Shown: in pieces, positions 2,155 to 19,013 of the stretch
Layout of the letters: every line of letters starts with the position of its first letter
Numbering within the stretch: position 1 is the first letter of the stretch
Origin: Capsulimonadaceae bacterium
GTDB taxonomy: Bacteria; Armatimonadota; Armatimonadia; Armatimonadales; Capsulimonadaceae
Assembly: GCA_965215505.1 (NCBI GenBank)
Contig: OZ244065.1
Span: forward strand, 3,744,001-3,808,000
Direction: 5' to 3'
Length of the DNA stretch: 64,000 bases
Translations under genes and position numbers: made by a program
Notes under the pieces: generated by a model
The model's input: only the letters and a program-made list of their open reading frames with translations
Told to the model about the DNA's origin: nothing
Database searches by the model: none

Positions 2155-2766
2155 ATGATTGAGAGTTCCGAGGTTGAGATGGCCGAAGGGAAGGAGGGGC
2201 TGCGCGAGCGAAAAAAGCGGGAAACGCTCAAACGCATCGCAGAGGCCAGCCTCAAACTCTTTGTGAAGAACGGATATGAGGGCACGACGCTGGACGAGAT
2301 CGCGGCGGAGGCCGGCATCGCCCGGCGGACGTTCTTCTATTACTTCAAGTCCAAAGAGGCCATCCTCATGGCGTACCTGGATGGGGGCTTTGCGAGGTCC
2401 AGCGTACCCCTCTTGCTCGCGCAGCCGACGGATCAGGCACCGCTGACTGCGGTTCGTAACAGCTTTTTGCAATTGATGTCCTGGTTTGAGACGGAGGAAG
2501 CCATCGTTGTGGACACCTTATTGGGGTCCACCGAGGCGCTGAGGGCGCGGATGCAGGCGAACTATGTGGAGACGGAGCATTTAGTCTTTGAAACACTGTG
2601 CGAGTTGTGGCCGCAGCCGGAAAGGAGGGCTTCGCTTCGGATCGTCGCGATGGTCTCGGTGGGTGCCATGCGCGTTGCGAAGGAGGCATGGCGACGGGAG
2701 GAAGGGCAGCGGCCTCTGGCGGAGTACCTGCGGGAGAGCTTCGCGGCTCTCGAAAGGATTATCTGA
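2155..2766 (+). CDS. TetR/AcrR family regulator
   Basis: GLRERKKRET...TTLDEIAAEAGIARRTFFYYFKSKE N-terminal HTH. Confidence 0.92.
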   Translation: MIESSEVEMAEGKEGLRERKKRETLKRIAEASLKLFVKNGYEGTTLDEIAAEAGIARRTFFYYFKSKEAILMAYLDGGFARSSVPLLLAQPTDQAPLTAVRNSFLQLMSWFETEEAIVVDTLLGSTEALRARMQANYVETEHLVFETLCELWPQPERRASLRIVAMVSVGAMRVAKEAWRREEGQRPLAEYLRESFAALERII

Positions 2767-3027
2767 CGGATCACGTCATTGCGTCAGACGAGCGCAGCCA
2801 CAAACCTGCCCTCAGTAGGGACATCTATAAACTAAAGCGACGTTCCCGGTTTACTATGTGATAACGTCCTCTATCGGATACAATGACCACATCAGGGGCT
2901 TCACCTGAAACTTTAGTCCGGTTCCGGCGACCCGGCCGTTGCCATCATCACACTCTTTCTGCGCTTGACCTTAACGGCTTCGCCCATGAATTCGCTCAGT
3001 TTCCGATTCAGCTCGTCCATATCGCGC

Positions 3028-3123
3028 TGCCGTCAGCCCTTCGCCGTCGGATTGGTGGCCGACGGCCGCCCCTTCGGCCAGGTCGCCGAGGCCCTGCTGA
3101 CTGTGGGCGCCGAGGCGTTCTAA
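3028..3123 (+). repeat. Direct copy of the 3' end of the MBL gene (756-851)
   Basis: Ungapped alignment at offset 2272, including gacggccgccccttcggccaggtcgccgaggccctgctgac and ending gaggcgttc-stop. Confidence 0.9.
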
Positions 3124-3191
3124 CTACTCTCCGGTGTAACCCTGCAAACCACCCTTTGTAAAAAAGATGAGATAAACCATAACTCTCGCTA

Positions 3192-3227
3192 TTGACTTCT
3201 TGTCTCTAATTGTGGACAATATGTCAC
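3192..3227 (+). promoter_or_regulatory. Sigma70 promoter overlapped by a GTGGAC-N5-GTCAC operator
   Basis: TTGACT-17-GACAAT. The operator resembles the boxes upstream of the C gene. Confidence 0.55.
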
Positions 3228-4624
3228 ATATGGCACTCTCCATAATTGACGGAAGTGAATTGCGAACTATTCGTATTCGACTTGGCCTTTCACAAGTCAA
3301 ATTAGCGGAGATTACTGGCGTACCTCAAGCAGACTTATCAGCCTTTGAGCTTGGCAAATCGTCACTTTCCTCTAGAGAAATAGACCACTTAAATGACTTG
3401 CTTTCTAAGGAAGAAGATGTTTTTCGTGTTGTCAGCCGCAAGAAGCGTTATCGCCAACATGAATTTGGTTCTCTGTTGAGAGATCAGTCGCGTGCATTGT
3501 TAGCGCGCAGGACGCCAGAGAACATCAACTATTTAGAGTTACTAGCGACGCTCCAACAACAAGCCAACCAGAACTTACAGGCCGGGCCGACTGCGCTTTC
3601 CCTCTTTTCGGGATGTGGCGGCTTCAGTACTGGCTTCAGTTGGGCTGGCTTCAAAATACTAGGGTTTTTAGAGATAAACCCTGACTTCCGACGCATCTAC
3701 CGCGAAAACTTTCCCGCTGCCCTAGAGCTTGCCACTGACATAACCAAAGTTTCTCAATTTCAAGTCCAAAGCTGGAAAGAGAAACTAGGCCAAGTTGACG
3801 TGATAATCGGCGGCCCTCCATGTCAGGGCTTCAGTCTGTCTGGCAAGCGCAAATCTGATGATTATCGAAACACTTTGTTTGAACACTATCTTAGAGTAGT
3901 TGAAATTGTACAACCAAGGGTCGCAGTTCTCGAAAATGTGCGGCTATTAACATCAATGAAGCTTCCTGACGGCAGCCTCGTTACCGATGCAATTCGCAAA
4001 AGTTTTCAAAGGTTGGGCTATTCGGTTCAAGCTTTCGAGGTTAATGCCAAAGAATTTGGCGTTCCTCAACATCGTGAACGCATTTTGTTTGTAGCCACAA
4101 GAAAGGACCAAACAGTAGTGCCTTCAATTCCTAACCCAATGCATTCCTCAAACTCAAACCTATTTGATAACAAAATACCCTGCCGCACCTTTGCCGACGC
4201 TTGTTCTGACTTAGAATTTTTAGAATCTGGACAAAAATCGTGCATTGACCCTCTCCATGAAGCTGTCGATCACCCGCGACATGTGATTGAGTGGCTTTGG
4301 AATGTCCGCCAGGGTGCTAGTGCTCACGAAAATGAAGATCCAGCAATGCGGCCTCCGTCTGGTTATAATACCACCTATAAACGGCAGATGTGGAACGAAC
4401 CAGCGTCAACCGTCCAAACCACATTCGGCATGATTTCCGGTTGTCGAAATGTTCATCCATTTGCAACTCGTGCATTAACTGTTCGCGAAGCTGCGCGGAT
4501 TCAGTCATTTCCTGACACTTATAAGTTTTCGGGAACACTTGGCGCAGTTAGAACCTCGATTGGGAACGCGGTTCCGCCACTTCTCGCTTACCATTTAGGA
4601 TGCCACATAAAACAGTGGCTCTAA
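3221..4624 (+). CDS. C5-cytosine DNA methyltransferase with N-terminal XRE HTH
   Basis: LFSGCGG, GGPPCQGFS, LENV, PQHRER, LTVREAARIQSFPD and IGNAVPP motifs; N-terminal LGLSQVKLAEITGV HTH. Low GC. Start is 3221 or 3230. Confidence 0.93.
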   Translation: MSHMALSIIDGSELRTIRIRLGLSQVKLAEITGVPQADLSAFELGKSSLSSREIDHLNDLLSKEEDVFRVVSRKKRYRQHEFGSLLRDQSRALLARRTPENINYLELLATLQQQANQNLQAGPTALSLFSGCGGFSTGFSWAGFKILGFLEINPDFRRIYRENFPAALELATDITKVSQFQVQSWKEKLGQVDVIIGGPPCQGFSLSGKRKSDDYRNTLFEHYLRVVEIVQPRVAVLENVRLLTSMKLPDGSLVTDAIRKSFQRLGYSVQAFEVNAKEFGVPQHRERILFVATRKDQTVVPSIPNPMHSSNSNLFDNKIPCRTFADACSDLEFLESGQKSCIDPLHEAVDHPRHVIEWLWNVRQGASAHENEDPAMRPPSGYNTTYKRQMWNEPASTVQTTFGMISGCRNVHPFATRALTVREAARIQSFPDTYKFSGTLGAVRTSIGNAVPPLLAYHLGCHIKQWL

Positions 4625-5601
4625 ATCTTGTGGAAATAGCCAGCCTCTAAGTTAAATTGCAATTGTGTGGGGTGCTGCGCTTGTCCTCCTCTCTGCATCT
4701 GAATAATACCGAATCGTGGGGCTTCGTGCTGAACACTAGGTGGGTCTCTGTAACTTCCCTTTCTGATCGAGTAACCTTTCTTGGAGAAACCGCCGTAAGC
4801 ACGAGATAATTTGATAAGCTCATCAATTCCATAAACAGCTACTTCAGTAGCATCCCAACTTGTTGAAGATTTTGTTTTGTGTAGCAGAAAATCAGGTGCG
4901 AATGGATCGTTCAAATAGGCTTTCTGAAAAAGAAGTCGCGAAACCTCCTCTTGTTTTACTGACAAGATGTATTCCCACTCTTGTCGCCCTGCTGCATTGA
5001 TTTCCTCCCAAAACCATCGTCTTGGGTCACTCAACCTTTCGTTCAATCCAGCAGGATCATCGCTCGGGCGAAAACCAACGTCGCCACAAAATTGTCTAAG
5101 GCTATTTATAGCATTTTGCGAAACCGGAAGCCCATTGCGTATCAATAGATTTGCGAAACCTACTGCTGTTGTAAAATACAGTTGGGCATTTGTCGGAGTC
5201 TGACCATTACACTGCTTTGTTGAAACTCCGATTGTCTTTACATCTTTATCACTCCATTCAAAAGTGATTACTAAATCGCTTTTACATCTGTTGACAGTAA
5301 CACCGTTGATGTTTAGCCAACGAACGCCTTCTTCGGAAGTTGCGAGAGCACCAGTTGAAATTGCCTGTATTCGCCTAATCACAGATTTGCCAAGGAGTTG
5401 ACTAACATAATCAATCAAAATGGTGGCTGGATCTCCTGAGAAGACATGTCCTGGTCCGACGGTAGTAAGACGTCGAGGATAAGTGAGCGAGTTAATTTCT
5501 TGAGCGATCCTGCCTTCAAAGCTATGGCCGGCTTTCCTACCTAAAATCCCGGCTTGAATTTGAAGAGCATGAATCTCATCGACTGGTGTAAGAGCCATCA
5601 A
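4621..5601 (-). CDS. Putative type II restriction endonuclease
   Basis: Lies between the C gene and the MTase. KSD...GVSTK PD-(D/E)xK-like core; C-terminal QMQRGG..TQLQF is reminiscent of MspI/HinP1I-like enzymes (from recall). Confidence 0.65.
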   Translation of the reverse strand: MMALTPVDEIHALQIQAGILGRKAGHSFEGRIAQEINSLTYPRRLTTVGPGHVFSGDPATILIDYVSQLLGKSVIRRIQAISTGALATSEEGVRWLNINGVTVNRCKSDLVITFEWSDKDVKTIGVSTKQCNGQTPTNAQLYFTTAVGFANLLIRNGLPVSQNAINSLRQFCGDVGFRPSDDPAGLNERLSDPRRWFWEEINAAGRQEWEYILSVKQEEVSRLLFQKAYLNDPFAPDFLLHKTKSSTSWDATEVAVYGIDELIKLSRAYGGFSKKGYSIRKGSYRDPPSVQHEAPRFGIIQMQRGGQAQHPTQLQFNLEAGYFHKI

Positions 5602-5822
5602 ATACCTTCAATCAGGTCTGACAAAGAGACTTCCAGACCTTCTGCTAGTTTAATTAGATTCACGAAAGCAGGGTTTCGCCGACCACGTTCTAACATGCTG
5701 ATGTATGTGCGGTCGAAGCCACAGCGATCTGCTAGGCTTTCTTGAGATAGATGGAGCTTTTCACGCTGACCTCGTATCTTCTCGCCTAAAGTATTCAGGC
5801 TGTTTTGATGTTCTCTCATCAT
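5598..5822 (-). CDS. RM controller (C) protein, XRE HTH
   Basis: LSQESLADRCGFDRTYISMLERGRRNP; overlaps the REase start. Confidence 0.85.
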   Translation of the reverse strand: MMREHQNSLNTLGEKIRGQREKLHLSQESLADRCGFDRTYISMLERGRRNPAFVNLIKLAEGLEVSLSDLIEGI

Positions 5823-5839
5823 TGATTACTGGATCAATT

Positions 5840-5870
5840 GTAGACGCTCTGTCCACGGACAGAACGTCAC
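5840..5870 (-). promoter_or_regulatory. Tandem C-box-like operator
   Basis: GTAGAC-gctct-GTCCAC followed by GGAC-agaac-GTCAC, just upstream of the C gene. Confidence 0.6.
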
Positions 5871-6127
5871 ATTAATTTAGGAAGGAACCATCAAAATTCA
5901 GAAACCATTTTGAGTTAGCTTTTGTACCAGACTGTAACCATTGAAACGGGCGTTTCACGGGTAACGAATTACTCCGTGACATTGTCCTTCATCGGATGTA
6001 ACAACCTGAACAGAAGCTTTGCCTGAAGCCCCTGTTCATCTTCGGCGGATAGTCGTTGCTGTCATGCTTTTTTTGTGTTCAACCTCGATGGATTCGCTCG
6101 GCTCCTGGTTTAGCCCGGCCAGTTCGT

Positions 6128-6195
6128 ACCGCCACCGGCCCTTCGTCGGCAGTCTGGCTGCCAAAGCCCTAATAACCGCAGGTGGGGCGTTCTAA
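6128..6195 (+). repeat. Third, decayed copy of the MBL gene 3' end
   Basis: Reads AKALITAGG-AF*, versus AEALLTVGGEAF* in the intact gene; ends gcgttctaa. Confidence 0.55.
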
Positions 6196-7405
6196 TTTGC
6201 CTGTAGTCAACGCTGGGCGCTCCCCGCGCGTCGCGGTCGCGGCCCTGTGCTGCGCGGCCCTCTTCCTGTACGCCGTCTACCTCGGTGCGTTGGGCGTCCT
6301 GCTGCCCGCCGTCGGCGTCTCCTTCAGGCTGGGGGCGGCGGCCCAGGGGCGGCTTTTTCCTGCCGACTTCGGCGGGTTCGTCATCGGGGTGCTGCTCTGC
6401 GGGGCGCTGTCCGACCGGCTGGGGCGCAAGGCCGTCCTGCTGGGCGGGGTGGCGGCCTATGCGCTGGGGCTGGCCCTGTTCAGCCGGGCGGGGACGTTCC
6501 CGCTGGCCCTGTTCGCGACGGGCCTGATTGGGGCAGGCAGCGGGGCGATGGAGACGGTCGCGAGCGCCCTGGCCTCCGACCTGTTCCCCCACCGGCGCGC
6601 GTTCCTGATCAACGCCCTCCAGGTCGCCTTCGGCGCGGGCGCGGCCCTCGGCCCGGCCCTGGCCCACCCGCTGCTGGCGGCGGGTGTGGACTGGCGGCTG
6701 CTCCCGCTGGCATTGGCCGCCGCCAACGTCCTGCTCTTTTTTGCCCTCGCCTTGCAGCCCATCGCGGACACCCGGCACGCGGGGGAGGCGCTCGACCCCG
6801 CCGCCCTGCGCGCGGCCCTGCGGCAGCCGGTCTTCCTGGCCCTGTGTCTGTGTCAGGCGCTCTATGTCGGGGCGGAGGTCGGCTTCGCCTCGTGGATGCC
6901 GACCTATTTCCTGCGCCATTTGCCCGGCGCGGCCTGGGCGGGGGCTGTCGTTTCCGTCTTCTGGGTCGCCATGACGTTGGGACGCCTCGTGACGGGGGCT
7001 TTGGTGACGCGCCTGCCGCTCCTGCGCCTGACCCTGTTCCTGGCAGTCGGCGGGACGGTGGGGGCCGCCCTCGCCCTGGCCTGGACCGCGCCGGGGCCGA
7101 CGATGGTCCTGGTCGGGGTCACCGGGCTGTGCTTCTCAGGCATCTTCGGCCTGATTCTGGCCGAGGCGGGGGAGCGTTACCCACGCTTCGCCGGGACGGC
7201 CTTCGGGGCGGTCGTCGCGGCGGGCGGCATCGGCGGGGCGGTCGTCCCCTGGGCAGTCGGGGCGCTGGCGGACACGGGCGCGGGCCTGCGCGGAGCCTTG
7301 CTGCTCGTCCCGCTGGCGATGGCGGTCCTGACCGCCCTGGTCTACCGGCTTGGGCTACTGCGCCAGCCGCTCATAAGCGGCGTACTGCCAGAGGGCGAGG
7401 CGTGA
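6182..7405 (+). CDS. MFS transporter
   Basis: GALSDRLGRK motif A and about 12 hydrophobic segments. Confidence 0.9.
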   Translation: MGRSNLPVVNAGRSPRVAVAALCCAALFLYAVYLGALGVLLPAVGVSFRLGAAAQGRLFPADFGGFVIGVLLCGALSDRLGRKAVLLGGVAAYALGLALFSRAGTFPLALFATGLIGAGSGAMETVASALASDLFPHRRAFLINALQVAFGAGAALGPALAHPLLAAGVDWRLLPLALAAANVLLFFALALQPIADTRHAGEALDPAALRAALRQPVFLALCLCQALYVGAEVGFASWMPTYFLRHLPGAAWAGAVVSVFWVAMTLGRLVTGALVTRLPLLRLTLFLAVGGTVGAALALAWTAPGPTMVLVGVTGLCFSGIFGLILAEAGERYPRFAGTAFGAVVAAGGIGGAVVPWAVGALADTGAGLRGALLLVPLAMAVLTALVYRLGLLRQPLISGVLPEGEA

Positions 7406-12604: not shown

Positions 12605-13615
12605 ATGCCATCCTCACCTGCGCCCTACTACGGTTTCAACTTCCTCTGGATGTACGTCTCGGACGGAGAGACGCCCCGCCCGCCCGACGAGCGCGCGCTG
12701 GACTTCCTGGTCCGGACCGGCTTCAACTTCGTGCGCGTCCCGACCAACTACCGCTCCTGGATCAAGGACTTCGACTATTTCCACCCCGACGAGGCCGTCT
12801 TTTCCTACATTGACCGCTACCTCGACGCCTGCCGGTCGCGCGGCCTGCATCTGAGCCTGAACCTGCACCGCGCGCCCGGCTACTGCATCAACAACAACGA
12901 CCTGGAGCGCGACAACCTCTGGCTCGACCCGGTCGCCCAGGACGGGTTCGTCTTCCAGTGGGAGACCTTCACCCGCCGCTTCCTCGGCACCCCCAGTTCC
13001 GCGCTCTCCTTCGACCTCCTGAATGAGCCGCCGAATGTCGGGCAGTACGGCCTGACCCGCGAAAACCACGCCGCCGTCATCCGCCGCGCCGTTCAGGCCA
13101 TCCGCGCGATTGACCCCGCCCGCGAGATCGTCATTGACGGCCTGGGCGGCGGCCACCTCGCCATGCCCGAGCTTGCCGACCTTGGCGTGGTCCACAGCGG
13201 ACGTGGCTACCAGCCCATGCCGGTCAGCCACCACAAGGCAAGCTGGTGGGACGGCCACGCGGCCGCCCCCGCGCCCGAGTATCCCGGCCAGGTGTGGGAG
13301 GGCCGGACGTGGGACCGCGACTCGCTGCGCGAGTTTTACCAGCCCTGGCGGGACGTGGAGGCGGGCGGCGCGCGGGTACACATCGGCGAGTGCGGCTGCT
13401 ACAACAAGACCCCCAACGACATCGTCCTGCGCTGGCTTGGGGACCTGTTCGGCCTGTACAAAGAGTTCGGCTGGGGCTACGCCCTCTGGAACTTCGCCGG
13501 CGACTTCGGCATCGTCGAACACGGCCGCCCCGGCGCGGTCTACGAGGAGCTGCACGGGTACAAAGTGGACCGCGCCCTGCTGGACATCCTAACGGAGAGC
13601 CGCGCATCGGCATGA
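12605..13615 (+). CDS. Glycoside hydrolase family 5
   Basis: NFVRVP, LNLHRAPG, DLLNEP and IGECG motifs. Confidence 0.88.
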   Translation: MPSSPAPYYGFNFLWMYVSDGETPRPPDERALDFLVRTGFNFVRVPTNYRSWIKDFDYFHPDEAVFSYIDRYLDACRSRGLHLSLNLHRAPGYCINNNDLERDNLWLDPVAQDGFVFQWETFTRRFLGTPSSALSFDLLNEPPNVGQYGLTRENHAAVIRRAVQAIRAIDPAREIVIDGLGGGHLAMPELADLGVVHSGRGYQPMPVSHHKASWWDGHAAAPAPEYPGQVWEGRTWDRDSLREFYQPWRDVEAGGARVHIGECGCYNKTPNDIVLRWLGDLFGLYKEFGWGYALWNFAGDFGIVEHGRPGAVYEELHGYKVDRALLDILTESRASA

Positions 13616-13670
13616 CAGAGGACAGGAAGAGGGGGTATAACTCTAACACGACACGCGGGGGACTGAAGAC

Positions 13671-14408
13671 ATGAGACAAGCCAGCTTTGCGGACATTAAC
13701 GAGGACTTCACGGCCCCGCCGTCGGGCTGCCGCGTGGTGCGCGCCGACGCCCTGACGGCATTGGCCGCCGTTCCCGATAGGACCTTCCGCTGCTGCGTCA
13801 CCAGCCCTCCGTACTGGGGCCTGCGCGATTATGATGTTGAACACCAGGTCGGGGCGGAGCCGAGGCTGGAAGATTACATTGCCAACGTGCGCGCCGTCTT
13901 CGCCGAGGTCCGTCGGACGCTGACGGACGACGGGACGCTCTGGCTAAACATTGGGGACAGCTACACAAGCGGGGGGCGGACCTGGCGCGACGCGGACAAG
14001 AAGAACAAGGGCCGGGCGATGGATTACCGCGCGCCTACTCCAGACGGGCTGAACCCCAAGGACCTCATTGGCGTCCCCTGGCGGCTCGCGTTCGCCTTGC
14101 AGGACGACGGCTGGTATCTGCGCTCGGACATCATCTGGCACAAGCCCAACTGCCAGCCGGAGAGCGTCAAGGACCGGCCGACGCGCGCCCATGAATACCT
14201 GTTCCTGTTCTCCAAGTCGGAGAAGTATCACTACGATCACGAGGCCGTCAAGGAGCCAACGGCCACGGCAGGCATGAAAGAGACGGGCCTGAAAAACCGC
14301 CGCTCCGTCTGGTCCGTCAATGAACCGCAGATGAGGCTTCGAAGTGACCTTACTCCTGAGCAGCGAGCATACGTTTTGCGGAGAATTGCCGACGAGGGTT
14401 TGCTCTAG
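13671..14408 (+). CDS. Beta-class amino-DNA methyltransferase (N4-C type), N-terminal fragment with added 28-aa tail
   Basis: VTSPPYWGLRDY, LWLNIGDSY, DLIGVPWRLAFAL, IIWHKPN, HEYLFLF, RRSVWSVN; no FxGxG motif. Confidence 0.9.
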   Translation: MRQASFADINEDFTAPPSGCRVVRADALTALAAVPDRTFRCCVTSPPYWGLRDYDVEHQVGAEPRLEDYIANVRAVFAEVRRTLTDDGTLWLNIGDSYTSGGRTWRDADKKNKGRAMDYRAPTPDGLNPKDLIGVPWRLAFALQDDGWYLRSDIIWHKPNCQPESVKDRPTRAHEYLFLFSKSEKYHYDHEAVKEPTATAGMKETGLKNRRSVWSVNEPQMRLRSDLTPEQRAYVLRRIADEGLL

Positions 14409-15237
14409 TCAGATGGCACCCGCGCGAACAGTACAGAACGCCAGGACGGTCTGCTGTAAACACCTTGCCGCAAGCTTGACACGCTTGGGGATCTCGTTTA
14501 AGGTGTACAGATCGACACGACCGAGAACAATATTTCAAGGTTCGGGAGGTCGCTCTCCGAGAAACGAAAACCTTGCCACACGCGATGCAGGATGCAGTAC
14601 AGCAGGCGTCACAAACTTTAGACGCAGGGGAGCGGGGCGTGAAGTCTACCCCGCACTTTGCACATGGGCGCAAAGGGACAACAAAGGGAAAACGTCGTAG
14701 GTCAGCAATGTCGGGATTGTTCCGCAGGAAGGCTATCTCCGCTTTGCCGTGACACTTGGGGCAGAGAGTAACAAGGTTTTCAATCTTGTTGGCATGGCGG
14801 TAGTCGGTAAACAGGTGGAACGGCGTGACATGATGCACAGGCAATCCACGGGCGATTATTCCACAGTGCTGACAAGTATCGTTGTCCCGCTTCCTGGCAG
14901 CGATTCTCTGGCGGTTCCAGTTTTCGCCACGATAGCTCATATGGCCGCCCTGCCATGTCGAGTTGTTTGGGCCGCTCATAATTCCAGAAGACCGCCATTT
15001 GGCCGCGCAGGATCGGCCGCAGAAGTTGTGTTCTTTGAGGCTACTTGGGCTGCGCTCTATCGTTCTGCCGCACATGAAGCAAGGAACCGAAACTTTCTTG
15101 GAGCCTACGCCTTTACGATGAGCCTGTTGCCATTTGCCGTAGCACGACAATCCGCAGAAATGGTTCACGGACAGCCCCGCCATGTAGGGCTTTGCCTGGT
15201 ACGGTGAGCCGCATTCATCACATGTTAGGGTGATCAT
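14350..15237 (-). CDS. HNH endonuclease with multiple C4 zinc ribbons (homing-endonuclease-like)
   Basis: CQHCG..LPVHHVTP..NKIENLVTLCPKCH, plus repeated CxxC...(F/Y)CxxxC units; lower GC. Confidence 0.88.
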   Translation of the reverse strand: MITLTCDECGSPYQAKPYMAGLSVNHFCGLSCYGKWQQAHRKGVGSKKVSVPCFMCGRTIERSPSSLKEHNFCGRSCAAKWRSSGIMSGPNNSTWQGGHMSYRGENWNRQRIAARKRDNDTCQHCGIIARGLPVHHVTPFHLFTDYRHANKIENLVTLCPKCHGKAEIAFLRNNPDIADLRRFPFVVPLRPCAKCGVDFTPRSPASKVCDACCTASCIACGKVFVSRRATSRTLKYCSRSCRSVHLKRDPQACQACGKVFTADRPGVLYCSRGCHLTRANPRRQFSAKRMLAAQE

Positions 15238-15270
15238 GCTCTATCATACGCTCTAAATGGAAAATCGTCA

Positions 15271-15591
15271 ATGAACATCACTTTGCGCCGGGACGAGATA
15301 CCCGATGACCTGCTAGAGTTTTTCGAGGATGCTGATACGCAGGCAAAAACGGACGTGTTCCGTGTCAACACCGAAGCCTTCCGCGAAGCGCACTTCGCCA
15401 CCTTCCCTACCAAACTTGTCGAGCCGTGCATCCTGGCCGGGTCGGAGCCGGGCGACACGGTCCTTGACCCCTTCCTCGGCTCCGGCACGGTCGGGCTGGT
15501 GGCCTGCCGACTGGATCGGAAGTTCTTGGGGGTGGAGTTGAGCGAGGAATACGCCTCAATCGCCCGGCGGCGGCTGGGCTGGACTAAATAG
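15271..15591 (+). CDS. DNA methyltransferase C-terminal (SAM-binding) fragment with added N-terminal leader
   Basis: EAHFATFP..LVEPCILAGS..VLDPFLGSGT..GVEL. Confidence 0.88.
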   Translation: MNITLRRDEIPDDLLEFFEDADTQAKTDVFRVNTEAFREAHFATFPTKLVEPCILAGSEPGDTVLDPFLGSGTVGLVACRLDRKFLGVELSEEYASIARRRLGWTK

Positions 15592-15750
15592 GTTCTGCTC
15601 CGGCGGGGGCGGTGTATCTTCCGGGGCGGGAGCGACGGTGGGGATGATCCAGGAGACGTGCCGAACGCAGAACTCTATTTGCAGGCCGGAGATGGTGATC
15701 TTGCCGTCGCTCCCGTCCAGGCGCAGTGTGAACGCAGGCCGCCCATCAAT

Positions 15751-16846
15751 AGATACTCCGTGAAATAGAGAAAGGGGTTGTCCCTGCCGAAGATTGTGGC
15801 ATGAACCTGACCCAACTGCACCGCCTGCCCAAAGACCGTGTCCGTGCCCTCTTCGGCCTCGACCCCGCCGCCCTCGGCCAACTGCTGGCCGCCGTCCTGC
15901 CCCCGCTTGTGGGGAAGCGGCACGCCTAACAGGAGGCCAAGGGGAAGCGGCACGCCCAACAGGAGGCCAAGAGGAACCGGCAGCGCGCCGTCGGCGGCGG
16001 GCGCAGGCGCAAGCTGCTCCCGTACCAGGAGGTTTTGATCACCCTGGTCTACCTGCGCCACAACGTCTCCCACGCCGTCTCCCACGCCGTCTGCGGCCAG
16101 ATGTTCGGCGTCAGCGCCGACATCAGCGAGAACAGCTTCCACGAGGTCATCCGGCTCTTGCGCGACGTGTGCCCCGCCGACCGCTGGGGCGCCGAGAAGA
16201 AGTGGACCAAGAGGGAGCCGTCGTGGCACCCCGACACGCTGGACCTGATCCTGGTGGACAGCTTCGAGACCCCCATCGGCCGGTCGAGCCTGCCGGACGT
16301 GCAGCGCAAGTTCTACTCGGGCAAGAAGAAGCGCCACACGACCAAGACACAGATCATTACCAACAAGCAGGGCGAGGTGCTTGCCATTGAGCCGGGGCAC
16401 CCCGGCCCTAAGTCCGATAAGAAGCTCTACGAACAAAGCCGGGCCAAAGATCAGTACCCGCAACGGGCCAAAGATCAGTACCCGCAAGCGGCGCGTCGGG
16501 CGGACCTTGCGTATGTGGGCGTGCCGGAGATGCTGCTGCCGCACAAGAAGGTGCGGGGCAAAGCAGGCGAGAAAGCCCTGCCGCTGACGCCGGAGCAGCA
16601 GGAAGAGAACCGGCACGCGGCGTCGGCGCGTGTCCCGGTGGAGCACGGGGTACGCCGGGTGAAGGCGTGGCGCATCCTGCGCGACGAGTACCGTCTGGCG
16701 CGGGGCCTGTTCTCGACGATCGCGCTGGCGACGGTGGGGCTGGTTCATCTGAGCCGTGTTGTGCCTGGATGAAGCCAAGCCGGAACAGAAGGGCGGCTGC
16801 GCCGCCCAGCTCACCCGGCAAGACATGGCTATTTCACGGAGCATCT
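15751..16846 (+). mobile_element. IS5-family-like insertion sequence (1096 bp)
   Basis: 18-bp TIRs AGATACTCCGTGAAATAG / CTATTTCACGGAGCATCT (1 mismatch); AAT duplicated on both sides. Confidence 0.9.
15801..16772 (+). pseudogene. DDE transposase with an in-frame stop at 15927-15929
   Basis: LVDSFE, YSGKKKRHT, ADLAYVG and RVPVEHGVRRVK motifs; TAA lies in the first copy of a 30-bp tandem duplication. Confidence 0.82.
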
Positions 16847-17629
16847 AATGGTGACCTTCACACTGCTACCGCCTTGGGAGGTCCGGGGACTGAAATCGGC
16901 GGACGTCAGGGCGGCAACGCGCCCCAGAACGTCGCGCGGTATCTCCACGATCTCGCAGAGCAGTCGGGTCGCCGACACGTCCCGTGCGCGGAGTACGAGG
17001 ATGCGGTCGTACTGGCTGAGGTGGGCTGGTATCCGCCGCGCGGCTTCCCGAGCCAGGTCTTCCAGCGTGGAGAACTGCTGTATCCAACGCGCCTCGGTGA
17101 ACTTGGAGATGGTGATCTTGTCCGGGCGGATGTCTTTAGAGGCTTCCGTTTTCAGCGAGAGCTTGACGCCTTCAACGGTCACGTCAATGCCGGAGAAGGT
17201 GTCACTGACAGTGATCGTCTCGGCCCTGCCATCGGCTGCACAGGCTCCCCTGAAGGCGTATTCAAACGCCTTCTTGCTCAACCGGGCTTCGTTCGTCGCG
17301 TGATGGATGAGGAGGCGGTTGCGAGAATCAGCCGTGAAGCGGGGCGTGGCAAAATCACTGGCCGGGTTGACGGTTTCCTCGACCTGACGCATCATCGTCC
17401 GGGCGACTTCGGTCAGCAACTCCACTTGAATCGGGTCAAGCCTCGTCGCGACCGAGATCAGTTCCCGAAGGGCGGTGCGTTCCTCGGCTTCGTCGGGCGG
17501 TTGATCGTCTCGCAGCATCACACCGAATTTAACACAGATTCCATCAGGAGTCAAACCCCATTGGGAAAGGCCGAGCGCAACGCGCCCGGCCTTCTGCTAT
17601 CCGACTGTGGGTGAAGGAGGTTGCTCGCC

Positions 17630-17842
17630 CTAAACTTCGCTCCGCGACTCGGGCTGCGGCGGCGAGATCGCGCCGCTGGTGGCGGCCCGCTCGAAGCTGT
17701 CTACTAGACCGGCGAAGCGCTCGAAGCGGCGGGCGGCGGCGGGGGACAGGTTATCCGTGTTGACTTTGGCGTCGTTGGGGGCGGGGCGCGGTTCGGCCCC
17801 TCTCTGTGACGGCGAGACGTTCGAGTTGATCGTTTCCGGCAT
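17630..17842 (-). CDS. Small hypothetical protein
   Basis: ORF with GAAGGGG RBS-like sequence, downstream of the GAF-like gene. Confidence 0.4.
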   Translation of the reverse strand: MPETINSNVSPSQRGAEPRPAPNDAKVNTDNLSPAAARRFERFAGLVDSFERAATSGAISPPQPESRSEV

Positions 17843-17915
17843 GACTTGTTTGACCCCTTCCGCCAATGCTGCCTGCAATGGTTCCTGTCTGGCCTGCGGT
17901 TCCTGATTATACCCG

Positions 17916-19013
17916 TCAGTTCGTCGAAATGGTTCCGGGCTTGTGTCCGCCCGCGATAATCACGCCCTCGCGCCACAGGAGTATCCCCAGGATAGAGCGG
18001 AGCGGGGAGATGAACCGCTTGATGTCCGCGGCATAGAACTCGTTCTCGCCGAAGATGTTGGGCTTGTTGGACTGGATGTTGAGGACGGCCACGATCTCCC
18101 CGGCGAACTCGACCGGCAGGCTGACGAAGCTGACGTACTGCTGCTTGGAAAAGAACTCGATCACCTCCCGCTTGACGGCGGGCGGCTGGCCTTCCAGGAG
18201 CGCATTCAGCCGGCCCGCGTCTTTGACATCCGGGATGACTGTTTCGTCGCCGGCGGCGAAGGCCCGCGCGGCCCCGAACAGCAGGCGCTCGTCGTCGGCA
18301 TCCACGGGGATCGCGAAGTCTCGGGGGACGCCCGAAGCGTTCTGCGCCCAGGCCGTGAGGAGAAGGACGGCCCGATACTCGTCATGCGGGCGCGACTGGT
18401 CGGCGAAATGGACCCGCCGGGCGTCGAGGTATTTGCCCGCCGCAAACTCCGACGTCGGGCGGGGCTGCATCAGGTTGGCGTTGACGTCAAGCTCGACCTT
18501 CTCCTGAAAGTAAGTGATCACAACCGAGGCGATGTACTTGAGCGTCTGCCGCTGGGCGAACTTGACCTGCTGGGCGTTATAGCCGTTCAGGTCTTGCAGG
18601 AGGTCCACCGCCCCGGAGAGTGTTTTGGTGTAGTCTTTGAGGAAGGCGTACTCGCCGGCCTGCCCTTGGAGCTGGCCGAGGTTGCCTCGCAGAGTCTTCA
18701 CCTGAGTCGCCAGGTTCCCCTTCTCGGCTTCGAGAGTCGTCACCTGATGCCGGTTTCTCGCCAGCACGCTGATCTTGTCCCACGCCTGGGCGAGCGACCC
18801 CGCGACCAGCAAAGCGCCGTAGGCCCACGGGTGATAGCCCTCCGAGTGGGGCGTATAGAGGTCCAAGTACCACGGGATCGCGACCCCACAGGCGAGCTGG
18901 AGGGCGATAAAGACCCAGGCCAAGATTGCGGAAAGCATTGCGTCAGGTATTCCGTCTGCCTGCCGCGTTTTCCTCCTCTGCGGGCGCCGATTCCTCCGCG
19001 CGCTACGCCCCAT
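17916..19013 (-). CDS. Membrane protein: 2 TM, coiled coil and GAF-like domain
   Basis: Two hydrophobic helices; SFVSLPV..EIVAVLNIQS..F GAF-like strands. Confidence 0.6.
   Translation of the reverse strand: MGRSARRNRRPQRRKTRQADGIPDAMLSAILAWVFIALQLACGVAIPWYLDLYTPHSEGYHPWAYGALLVAGSLAQAWDKISVLARNRHQVTTLEAEKGNLATQVKTLRGNLGQLQGQAGEYAFLKDYTKTLSGAVDLLQDLNGYNAQQVKFAQRQTLKYIASVVITYFQEKVELDVNANLMQPRPTSEFAAGKYLDARRVHFADQSRPHDEYRAVLLLTAWAQNASGVPRDFAIPVDADDERLLFGAARAFAAGDETVIPDVKDAGRLNALLEGQPPAVKREVIEFFSKQQYVSFVSLPVEFAGEIVAVLNIQSNKPNIFGENEFYAADIKRFISPLRSILGILLWREGVIIAGGHKPGTISTN

Follow-up and report, generated by a model that had tools for sequence, protein, structure and literature searches.

A DNA methyltransferase gene split by an antisense HNH endonuclease cassette in a Capsulimonadaceae bacterium

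Homing endonucleases are thought to persist in genes mainly by means of self-splicing introns or inteins, and the fracture of a gene without either has been described, in the parts of the literature covered here, for few genes, such as nrdA of Aeromonas phage Aeh1. How could a nuclease gene sit inside an enzyme gene, on the opposite strand and with no sign of splicing, and yet spare its host? The question is raised by a locus of a Capsulimonadaceae bacterium (contig OZ244065.1, positions 3,744,001 to 3,808,000). This whole stretch of 64,000 nucleotides is called the window, and all coordinates without a locus prefix are positions in it. Here, two adjacent genes encode the halves of a beta-class DNA methyltransferase (methylase), and an HNH endonuclease gene stands between them on the other strand. 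We consider it probable that a homing-type HNH cassette invaded the methylase gene of a SmaI-like locus and that the two halves reassemble as an active enzyme. Beside introns and inteins, the cassette may thereby offer a further route by which a selfish nuclease leaves the gene that it occupies functional.

The two methylase genes and the insert between them

The gene for the N-terminal half (13671..14408, + strand; an open reading frame of 245 amino acids) encodes the catalytic SPPY motif, which is typical of N4-cytosine enzymes, and the target-recognition part. Its product matches the Pfam family PF01555 (N6_N4_Mtase) with E=2.2e-28 over profile positions 2-145 of 221, and residues 19-219 match phrog_67 in PHROGs. 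It ends with ...RRSVWSVN followed by a cassette-encoded tail, EPQMRLRSDLTPEQRAYVLRRIADEGLL, and its own TAG stop (14406-14408). The gene for the C-terminal half (15271..15591, + strand; 106 amino acids) has its own ATG, followed by a head peptide, a repeated strand, motif X and DPFLGSGT, which belongs to the S-adenosylmethionine (AdoMet)-binding part. Its product begins with MNITLRRDEIPDDLLEFFEDADTQAKTDVFRVN and continues with TEAFREAHFATFP; it matches PF01555 (E=2.9e-22) over profile positions 142-220 of 221. In PHROGs, both halves match phrog_67 over the overlapping profile positions 123-274 and 262-344. An earlier reading of this DNA, made from its letters only (the sequence-only reading), had described a beta-class methylase broken after RRSVWSVN into halves otherwise intact. 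The open reading frames, the Pfam matches and the retention of both motifs bear this out.

The insert extends over 1048 bp (14322..15369), a length that shifts the reading frame. To its left, the host-derived exon 1 (13671..14321, + strand) ends with the strand SVWSVN (copy 1, 14304-14321); to its right lies the host-derived exon 2 (15370..15591, + strand). The cassette is thus placed between the VW.V. beta-strand and the AHFATFP motif of the methylase, and the insertion point is the boundary of the catalytic and target-recognition part with the AdoMet-binding part. Read along the + strand, the cassette comprises the tail peptide and its stop (14322..14408, +), of which the last 59 nucleotides overlap the 3′ end of the HNH gene on the opposite strand, then the HNH gene itself (14350..15237, -), a divergent intergenic region of 33 bp (15238..15270; GC content 0.39), the head peptide MNITLRRDEIPDDLLEFFEDADTQAK that forms the N-terminus of the C-half (15271..15348, +), and finally, just inside the right end, a second copy of the strand (TDVFRVN, 15349..15369, +), which repeats the RSVWSVN of 14301-14321. 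The composition of the cassette sets it apart from its surroundings. Its GC content is 0.538 and its GC content at third codon positions (GC3) is 0.513; along the DNA, GC content is 0.51-0.57 over 14200-15400 versus 0.60-0.68 alongside. By parts, GC3 is 0.84 in both exons, 0.54 in the tail, 0.58 in the HNH gene, 0.62 in the head and 0.86 in strand copy 2, over 7 codons.

The gene within the insert had been read as an antisense zinc-finger HNH endonuclease, and the 295-amino-acid product indeed matches PF01844 in Pfam (E=1.1e-6), as well as phrog_1271 in PHROGs (E=1.4e-34). A central beta-beta-alpha-metal core stands between about five zinc units of the form CxxC...(F/Y)C(S/G)xxC. Among the Cys, His and Asn columns of 20 homologues, H136, N150, N154, H163 and the CxxC pairs are invariant; the catalytic HNH core is present and intact. 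The AlphaFold2 model has a predicted local distance difference test score (pLDDT) of 82.3 and a predicted template modelling score (pTM) of 0.39, a low pTM being expected for domains arranged as beads on a string. The core of this model matches the HNH protein of phage GVE2 (5h0m; E=5.2e-4, 32% identity, template modelling score of 0.64 on the target), and the flanking units weakly resemble YacG-like zinc fingers. Database searches returned 34 relatives at E<=1e-3, 19 of which are 44-95% identical over at least 82% of the length. The relatives in phage records are free-standing genes, 26-41% identical, found beside tail-structure genes in the two records inspected. On the minus strand, a sigma-70-like site (TTGACG, 17 nucleotides, TATGAT; 15271 to 15243) ends 6 nucleotides before the ATG of the HNH gene; it is a consensus match only, at 10 of 12 positions, and 2 sites were found versus 0.7 expected in shuffled sequences. 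Directly upstream of this promoter-like site, strand copy 2 provides a terminator-like element on the minus strand, a perfect 5-bp hairpin followed by a run of T (15349-15363).

Might the messenger or the protein be rejoined? The sequence-only reading had held that neither an intron nor an intein is present, and the searches agree. A scan with Rfam 15 at E<=1, over 13000-18000 and on both strands, gave 0 matches, whether to catalytic intron RNAs or to others, and the open reading frame of the insert is antisense. As regards inteins, the tail opens with E, T, M, K, Q, G or N in 13 related loci (see below), rather than with a conserved Cys, Ser or Thr nucleophile. Likewise, a C-terminal (H)N followed by Cys, Ser or Thr is not conserved, the residue before exon 2 being N, S, A, R, G or P and the +1 residue T, P or S. 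Tail and head together make less than 65 amino acids, where a Hint fold takes about 130 or more, and no intein family appeared in the Pfam scan. True inteins in two related loci (L018 and L027) look quite different from tail and head. In all loci, the N-half retains its stop and the C-half its start. Finally, an in-frame read-through of the kind proposed for the ShiLan domain of actinophage methylases (see below) is ruled against by the TAG at 14406-14408, the new ATG at 15271 and the frame shift; nor does the HNH gene occupy another frame of the same strand, as it does in that type, since it lies on the opposite one.

Alleles with and without the cassette

If the insert is a mobile element, alleles lacking it should be found, and the search proposed by the sequence-only reading did reveal uninterrupted genes, both in metagenome contigs and in two same-genus genomes. 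Four public runs (X3, X7, X8 and X10), their contigs aligned to window 13000-15800, gave 3 empty joints and 4 filled contigs. One empty allele of X7 (record 22, 331 nucleotides) covers 14153-14321 and then 15391-15546, the 21 intervening letters reading T-E-P-F-A-E-A. In X10, one empty joint passes from 14320 to 15388 with 19 letters between, and a contig of 7297 nucleotides, also empty, covers 14075-14234 and 15385-15739 with 87 letters between. The filled alleles are X7 record 21 (13667-15744, 102 differences), X8 record 23, X3 record 14 (1 difference) and X10 record 6. In the two same-genus genomes (G157 and G130; loci L091 and L092), the methylase gene is contiguous, 77-81% identical to the N-half and convergent with an intact restriction gene; across the junction, these genes read ...RRSVWSINTEAFPEAHFATFP... 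and ...RRSVWSIHTEAFPEAHFATFP.... Taken together, the empty-allele joints, those at 14320/14321 marking the end of exon 1, and the contiguous same-genus genes define the insert as 14322-15369, between an N and a T codon. The lower-GC, frame-shifting insert of 1048 bp that had been proposed therefore has exact boundaries. Upstream of the gene, 76 nucleotides preceding the methylase start (window 13590-13667) are swapped for 75 other letters in X7 and X8.

The distribution of the nuclease is patchy. In a sample of 401 genomes of the phylum, the window's own included, the HNH gene occurs in 1, the window's own, where it is single-copy apart from a weak 55-residue match elsewhere. The SmaI-like restriction locus, searched for with the restriction protein, occurs in 6 of the 401, again counting the window's own. 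This distribution, the lower GC3, and empty and filled alleles at one site uphold the proposal of a mobile HNH element, probably of the homing type. In another family of the phylum, the methylase gene beside a SmaI-like gene (L093, G266:C202, about 2250-3060, -) is frameshifted and carries no insert.

The split arrangement itself recurs. One genome locus (L003) and the best 80 of 95 metagenome loci were fetched, and tblastn matched methylase halves in 32 of these 81. The order N-half, antisense HNH gene, C-half, for which the sequence-only reading had suggested a synteny search, is seen again in the 17 loci whose HNH genes are closest to that of the window (L003-L018 and L020). In all 17, the beginning of the C-half lies antisense, immediately upstream of where the HNH gene starts. 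The N-half extends to the HNH 3′ end or overlaps it in each of the 15 loci with a long enough contig; the contigs of L013 and L015 stop within the HNH gene. VLDPF.G.GT is kept in the 12 complete C-halves, and the halves remain open and motif-bearing even in loci whose proteins share only 36-62% identity with those of the window. On a larger scale, a profile of 16 C-halves was run against 1.84 billion representatives of clusters at 50% identity, and matched 77,327 proteins at E<=0.001. Within the best 150 of these, 63 are stand-alone C-halves with an N-terminal head, mostly of 155-260 amino acids; 2 have an internal head (P0078, an over-extended open reading frame, and P0131, a contiguous methylase); and 85, mostly full-length enzymes, have no head. 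The arrangement is widespread, old and diversified in one methylase family, which suggests that, for one kind of enzyme, being fractured can be a successful strategy, common and lasting. Among phage records matching the C-half, 0 of the best 40 of 459 begin at the head, and the two matches inspected are intact methylases.

Tail, head and repeated strand

What is encoded by the ends of the cassette? In every split N-half, R.VW.V. is followed by a tail of the form EP.(F/Y)RLR.DLTPEQRAYVL.R(I/L)...G.. and then by a stop. Each C-half, in turn, opens with the head peptide, M.IIL...(I/V)P.DL.E(F/Y)FEP, after which come 5-8 residues, a second strand DV(W/F).I. and ...AHFATFP. The tail has about 28 amino acids and the head about 26-33 across loci (about 26 in the window); neither is present in the intact methylase alleles. 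Hidden Markov models (HMMs) of the two peptides retrieved 16 N-halves split at this site (site 1 below), 3 of them outside the training set, and 19 C-halves, 1 of them not used for training; the only copies that they detected in the window's own genome are those of the window. Head residues P11 and F18 are invariant in 41 C-halves, and E19 is invariant too in 16. Conservation acts on the protein, since the invariant residues are encoded by 2-6 synonymous codons (four for head P11, six for tail R7, four each for tail L6 and T11). The first nine residues of the tail fall outside the HNH gene, and in L010, L011, L016 and L017 the tail is conserved without any HNH overlap. Over 13 loci, pairwise identities of the head correlate with those of the HNH protein (Mantel r=0.36, p=0.005), a result that is suggestive only because the sequences are short; the corresponding values are r=0.13 (p=0.22) for head versus C-half core and r=0.11 (p=0.23) for HNH versus core. 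The pattern of these sequences suggests that tail and head belong to the mobile cassette and not to the host exons. Both peptides resemble a short strand followed by a helix that starts with P, and mutual homology was considered; it was rejected, the profile-profile probability being 1.1%.

Tail and head are also found at other places of the enzyme. In L040, they flank an HNH gene, here on the sense strand, after SPPYFGLRSY..., and each is detected at its expected end (tail HMM E=0.003, head HMM E=0.0096). In the viral contigs L086 and L087/L088, an antisense HNH gene with tail and head lies between ...GLE..P.CG... and C..C..C..V.VFREV. In L024 and L027, a tail-like end, below detection by the tail HMM, follows ...SE(K/R)GCC and precedes an antisense HNH gene, the C side being off the contig. 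At site 1 of L089, a small zinc-finger open reading frame, and not an HNH gene, stands between tail and head. The HNH proteins of all tail/head sites are mutually homologous, with 23-53% identity except for one pair at 68%. A profile of the 40-amino-acid head region, run against longer proteins, gave 53 matches, of which 51 have PF01555 and 0 have another Pfam family; 22 are of the site-1 type, 26 of second-site types and 5 unsorted. Similarly, longer proteins searched by word matches to C-half residues 1-40 yielded no other host family for the head. Together with related HNH genes, the tail/head pair would have reached three or more sites within a single methylase family.

The strand is a further peculiarity of the insertion. 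The 6-9 codons that precede the insertion site recur at the right end of the cassette (SVWSVN and DVFRVN in the window). The two copies read DVIEWR and DTIEWR in L006, with 12 identical bases, NVWAIN and DTWAIN in L005, with 13 identical bases, NWWVVN and NYLVVN in L011, and NVWHLG and DVWRLG in L018. Over 12 loci, the copies are more alike within a locus than between loci: 128 of 216 bases agree, versus 91.9 +/- 7.5 after permutation, a value that 0 of 20,000 shuffles reached, and 39 of 72 residues agree versus 21.8 expected (p=5e-5). This test overstates independence, because the loci are related to each other. To judge from these alignments, the strand repeat looks like a target-site duplication made at insertion, or like the outcome of concerted evolution.

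Two contiguous methylases, P0131 and P0135, carry a remnant of tail and/or head and both strand copies but no HNH gene. They are either scars left after loss of the nuclease gene or representatives of an ancestral state, and they look like a bridge between the ShiLan read-through state and the split state. With some reserve, and at odds a little short of even, we put forward that tail and head are a portable, non-splicing heterodimerising pair that lets HNH genes live inside coding genes, the strand being duplicated on insertion and an in-frame scar, as in P0131 and P0135, being left after loss of the nuclease.

Predicted assembly of the halves, rival explanations and known systems

The following mechanism may be envisaged. 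The HNH enzyme would cut or nick empty alleles, and repair would copy the cassette in. The left end of the cassette would complete the N-half with a tail of about 28 amino acids and a stop, and its right end would begin the C-half with a start codon, a head of about 26 amino acids and a second VW.V. strand. The C-half would probably be transcribed by read-through across the antisense HNH gene. Translated separately, the halves would rejoin non-covalently into a two-subunit, probably N4-cytosine, methylase, with tail and head, each a strand plus a helix, pairing so as to hold them together. Structural modelling is in keeping with such an assembly. Models of the complex of the two halves have interaction prediction scores from aligned errors (ipSAE) of 0.83, 0.83 and 0.82, while the best of 3 controls has 0.00; they pass a mark that is reached by 58 of 80 solved complexes and by 2 of 110 mismatched pairs. 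The runs share at least 71% of contacts, and the partner pLDDT is at least 70. On the tail side, the confident interface includes the strand 218-225 and a helix face (227, 231, 235-236, 238-239, 242, 244-245); on the head side, it includes residues 2-11, 14-15 and 17-21. In the model, this interface would fit a pairing of strand plus helix against strand plus helix, the output giving interface residues rather than residue pairs. The conserved open halves and the modelled complex lend support to fragment complementation by inference only.

The neighbouring genes bear on whether the enzyme is still needed. A SmaI-family endonuclease gene adjoining a beta-class SPPY methylase gene is the arrangement of a SmaI-type type II restriction-modification system, and in the window a truncated SmaI-like restriction endonuclease is encoded at 16829..17554 (-; PF17411, E=1.2e-17, profile positions 8-182 of 240). 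Its open reading frame is of 255 amino acids, versus 297-301 in the same genus, and its last 8 codons and stop fall within the terminal repeat of an insertion sequence (IS). This IS (15744..16853, +), which encodes a DDE_Tnp_4 transposase (PF13359, E=1.9e-25), lies within the restriction gene and has terminal inverted repeats of 25 nucleotides (15744-15768 and 16829-16853), 88% complementary. Beyond it, a displaced C-terminal fragment of the restriction gene remains as an open frame (15562..15743, -), convergent with and overlapping the 3′ end of the methylase gene. About 65 amino acids of this gene, at 15562-15759 (-), share 71-72% identity with the C-terminus of the uninterrupted gene in G157 and G130; the fragment has no match in Pfam and was identified through these same-genus homologues. 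The argument that an intact restriction gene would oblige the methylase to work was therefore rejected for this genome, in which the restriction gene is broken. The filled allele of X7 record 21, whose DNA is 95% identical, continues past 15744 into restriction-gene sequence without the IS (14 of the 17 bases beyond the junction agree, the comparison being made by eye), which indicates that insertion of the cassette preceded that of the IS. In this genome, the cassette would thus have come first, the IS would then have broken the restriction gene, and the methylase may no longer be needed.

Several observations weigh against reassembly into an active enzyme, or against plain homing. The best-determined contacts of the modelled complex are those of the core and not those between tail and head. 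Residues 22-44 of the C-half, strand copy 2 among them, lie outside the confident interface. Since intact beta-class methylases have been solved, passing the mark shows likeness rather than binding. The model of P0135, a natural fusion of tail and head, is poor over the module region (pLDDT 40-77). No plus-strand promoter-like site for the C-half was found within the cassette, so that we only infer its transcription by read-through. In L003, the locus is clearly decayed, the N-half being frameshifted and the C-half cut off after residue 38. With the restriction gene broken by the IS, the methylase is dispensable in this genome and could already be inactive; in the X7 relative, split methylase and restriction gene may coexist. 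Finally, the likeness of the two strand copies within each locus is not predicted by plain homing from an unrelated donor.

Among the rival explanations, the plainest is that the gene is dead, the locus decaying after the arrival of the HNH cassette and of the IS and the methylase pieces making no active enzyme. The interrupted restriction gene, with its C-terminal 60 or so amino acids displaced, the other PF01555 genes of this genome (9 matches in all) and the decay seen in L003 and in the frameshifted methylase of G266 (L093) would all suit it. Such decay would, however, hardly be expected to leave both halves open with SPPY and DPFLGSGT kept and an exon GC3 of 0.84, nor to leave split genes with open, motif-bearing halves at 36-62% identity and in 63 of the best 150 representatives, nor a relative, 95% identical, in which the split methylase stands beside restriction sequence without the IS. 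We therefore regard a dead gene as unlikely, though it deserves more weight than either of the two readings that follow. The HNH protein might instead be a partner of the methylase, as a restriction-like or addiction nuclease that methylation restrains or as a domesticated DNA-binding regulator, nested in the gene for co-inheritance and not for homing. It is true that related HNH genes adjoin intact methylases of the same or other families (L021/L022, L037, L040, L047, L049, L053 and L054) and that the arrangement is old and diversified. But same-genus relatives have the pair of methylase and restriction genes and no HNH gene, close alleles differ by its presence or absence at one exact site, its composition is foreign, and its long array of zinc units suits a long recognition site; a partnership appears, accordingly, quite improbable.

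The least probable reading, to which we give hardly any credit, is a hidden joining of the halves by an unrecognised intron, trans-splicing, translational bypass or an atypical split intein. In its favour, the bypass of T4 gene 60 can reportedly travel with a homing cassette. The ShiLan element, too, was once taken for an odd intein (PMC11855218). Against it stand the empty Rfam scan over 13000-18000, the stop and start kept in all loci, the selection of tail and head as protein, their small joint size and variable end residues, and the antisense gene carried by the 1048-bp insert. We return to the reading of a homing cassette whose host enzyme is rebuilt from two subunits, and ask what is known of comparable cases.

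Active methyltransferases made of two separately translated polypeptides reportedly exist in M.AquI and M.EcoHK31I, which are said to be C5-cytosine enzymes. The methylase considered here would resemble them in its predicted two-polypeptide form; we know of no member of that type split by a mobile nuclease gene. The nrdA gene of phage Aeh1 is said to have been described as 'genes in pieces' by Friedrich et al. in 2007 and by Gibb and Edgell in 2007, its two products reportedly rebuilding an active enzyme. There, as here, an HNH gene inside a conserved enzyme gene leaves two open reading frames. In Aeh1, the free-standing HNH gene mobE splits nrdA with neither intron nor intein (PMC2677866); it lies on the same strand in one operon, the host encodes a ribonucleotide reductase, and the case is a single phage. 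The present HNH gene is antisense, its host is a methyltransferase, and the family is large and diversified. Peptides at the cassette ends and a duplicated strand are found here, and the covered literature on Aeh1 describes none. Intein-free fracture by endonuclease genes is recorded for Aeh1 nrdA, for the gp43 gene of Aeromonas phage 25 and for an sbcD gene.

Closer in another respect are the fractured genes of Dassa et al. (2009), in which split inteins ligate the halves and an endonuclease gene stands between them (PMC2677866). As in the cassette, each half bears an extension derived from the element and thought to unite the halves; the nuclease gene overlaps a neighbouring coding region, and the cases come mostly from phages and metagenomes. 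The hosts there are eight kinds of DNA synthesis or repair enzyme, and the string 'methyl' is absent from the text searched. Because tail and head lack every intein feature tested, any rejoining here would be non-covalent, unlike that by the split inteins of Dassa et al. The ShiLan domain, or Pacc40 insertion, of actinophage methylases (Arsenault, Gosselin and Gogarten 2025, PMC11855218) shares an HNH with flanking zinc fingers placed at conserved methylase residues, without detectable intron or intein, a patchy distribution suggestive of homing, and related HNH genes beside intact methylases. That insert is read through in frame and leaves the host protein in one piece, with the HNH in another frame of the same strand, whereas in the present case a stop and a new start make two genes out of one, the HNH gene is antisense, and tail and head are conserved.

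The fracture of genes by homing endonucleases is, as a kind of event, already known. Comparison was made with PMC2677866, PMC11855218, bioRxiv 10.1101/2025.01.02.630785 and PMC4190342, and the literature search, supplements being outside its scope, met neither an account of a methylase gene divided by an antisense HNH gene nor one of conserved end peptides other than inteins. Cassette-borne tail and head, a duplicated target strand and spread to several sites of one enzyme family are, as far as found, undescribed. A mobile cassette may thus bring along what its host enzyme needs to stay active. If tail and head are assembly tags, they would constitute a natural and compact heterodimerisation pair, of about 25 amino acids each, for split-protein engineering, a testable model for the breakage of genes into subunits, and an intermediate in the scheme that Dassa et al. 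proposed for the breaking of genes. For annotation, it should be kept in mind that such halves are easily labelled pseudogenes or 'hypothetical proteins'.

The loci also contain other traces of mobile elements and recombination. In two different metagenomes, L006 and L015 share about 620 nucleotides that are 100% identical (the 5′ part of the HNH gene, the head and the first 35 or so codons of exon 2), then diverge strongly in a variable Cys-rich insert and are 98.5% identical after it, a recombination mosaic in the C-half. As a clean transfer of the cassette this pair was rejected, the identical block entering exon 2 and the divergence falling inside the C-half, which indicates recombination only. 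An intein-type insert follows DIIW in L027 (318-2654, -; C...THN|S); an intein- or endonuclease-like in-frame insert separates AHFA from TFP in L018 (1-1317, -); L016 has an intein end (2730-3245, -) and L009 a LAGLIDADG-like block (4818-6296, -). Selfish elements of several kinds thus concentrate in this methylase family, which is a hot spot for them. At L037 (349-2245) and L040 (2061-3723), a more distant HNH gene lies antisense at the 3′ end of an intact methylase gene, and beyond it the methylase C-terminus occurs once more, as a degenerate copy, as though a replacement 3′ end had come with the cassette and displaced the old one. In the window's own genome, another PF01555 gene occurs in two adjacent pieces (C1:1909170-1909846, -; profile positions 1-52 and 76-219); a frameshift or a split may account for this, and the tail/head signal was not found there. 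Lastly, the methylase fragment P0158 (207 amino acids) contains, at the same site as the cassette, an in-frame insert of about 35 amino acids flanked by SVWDI...SVWDI; unlike tail or head in sequence, this insert may be the footprint of another element.

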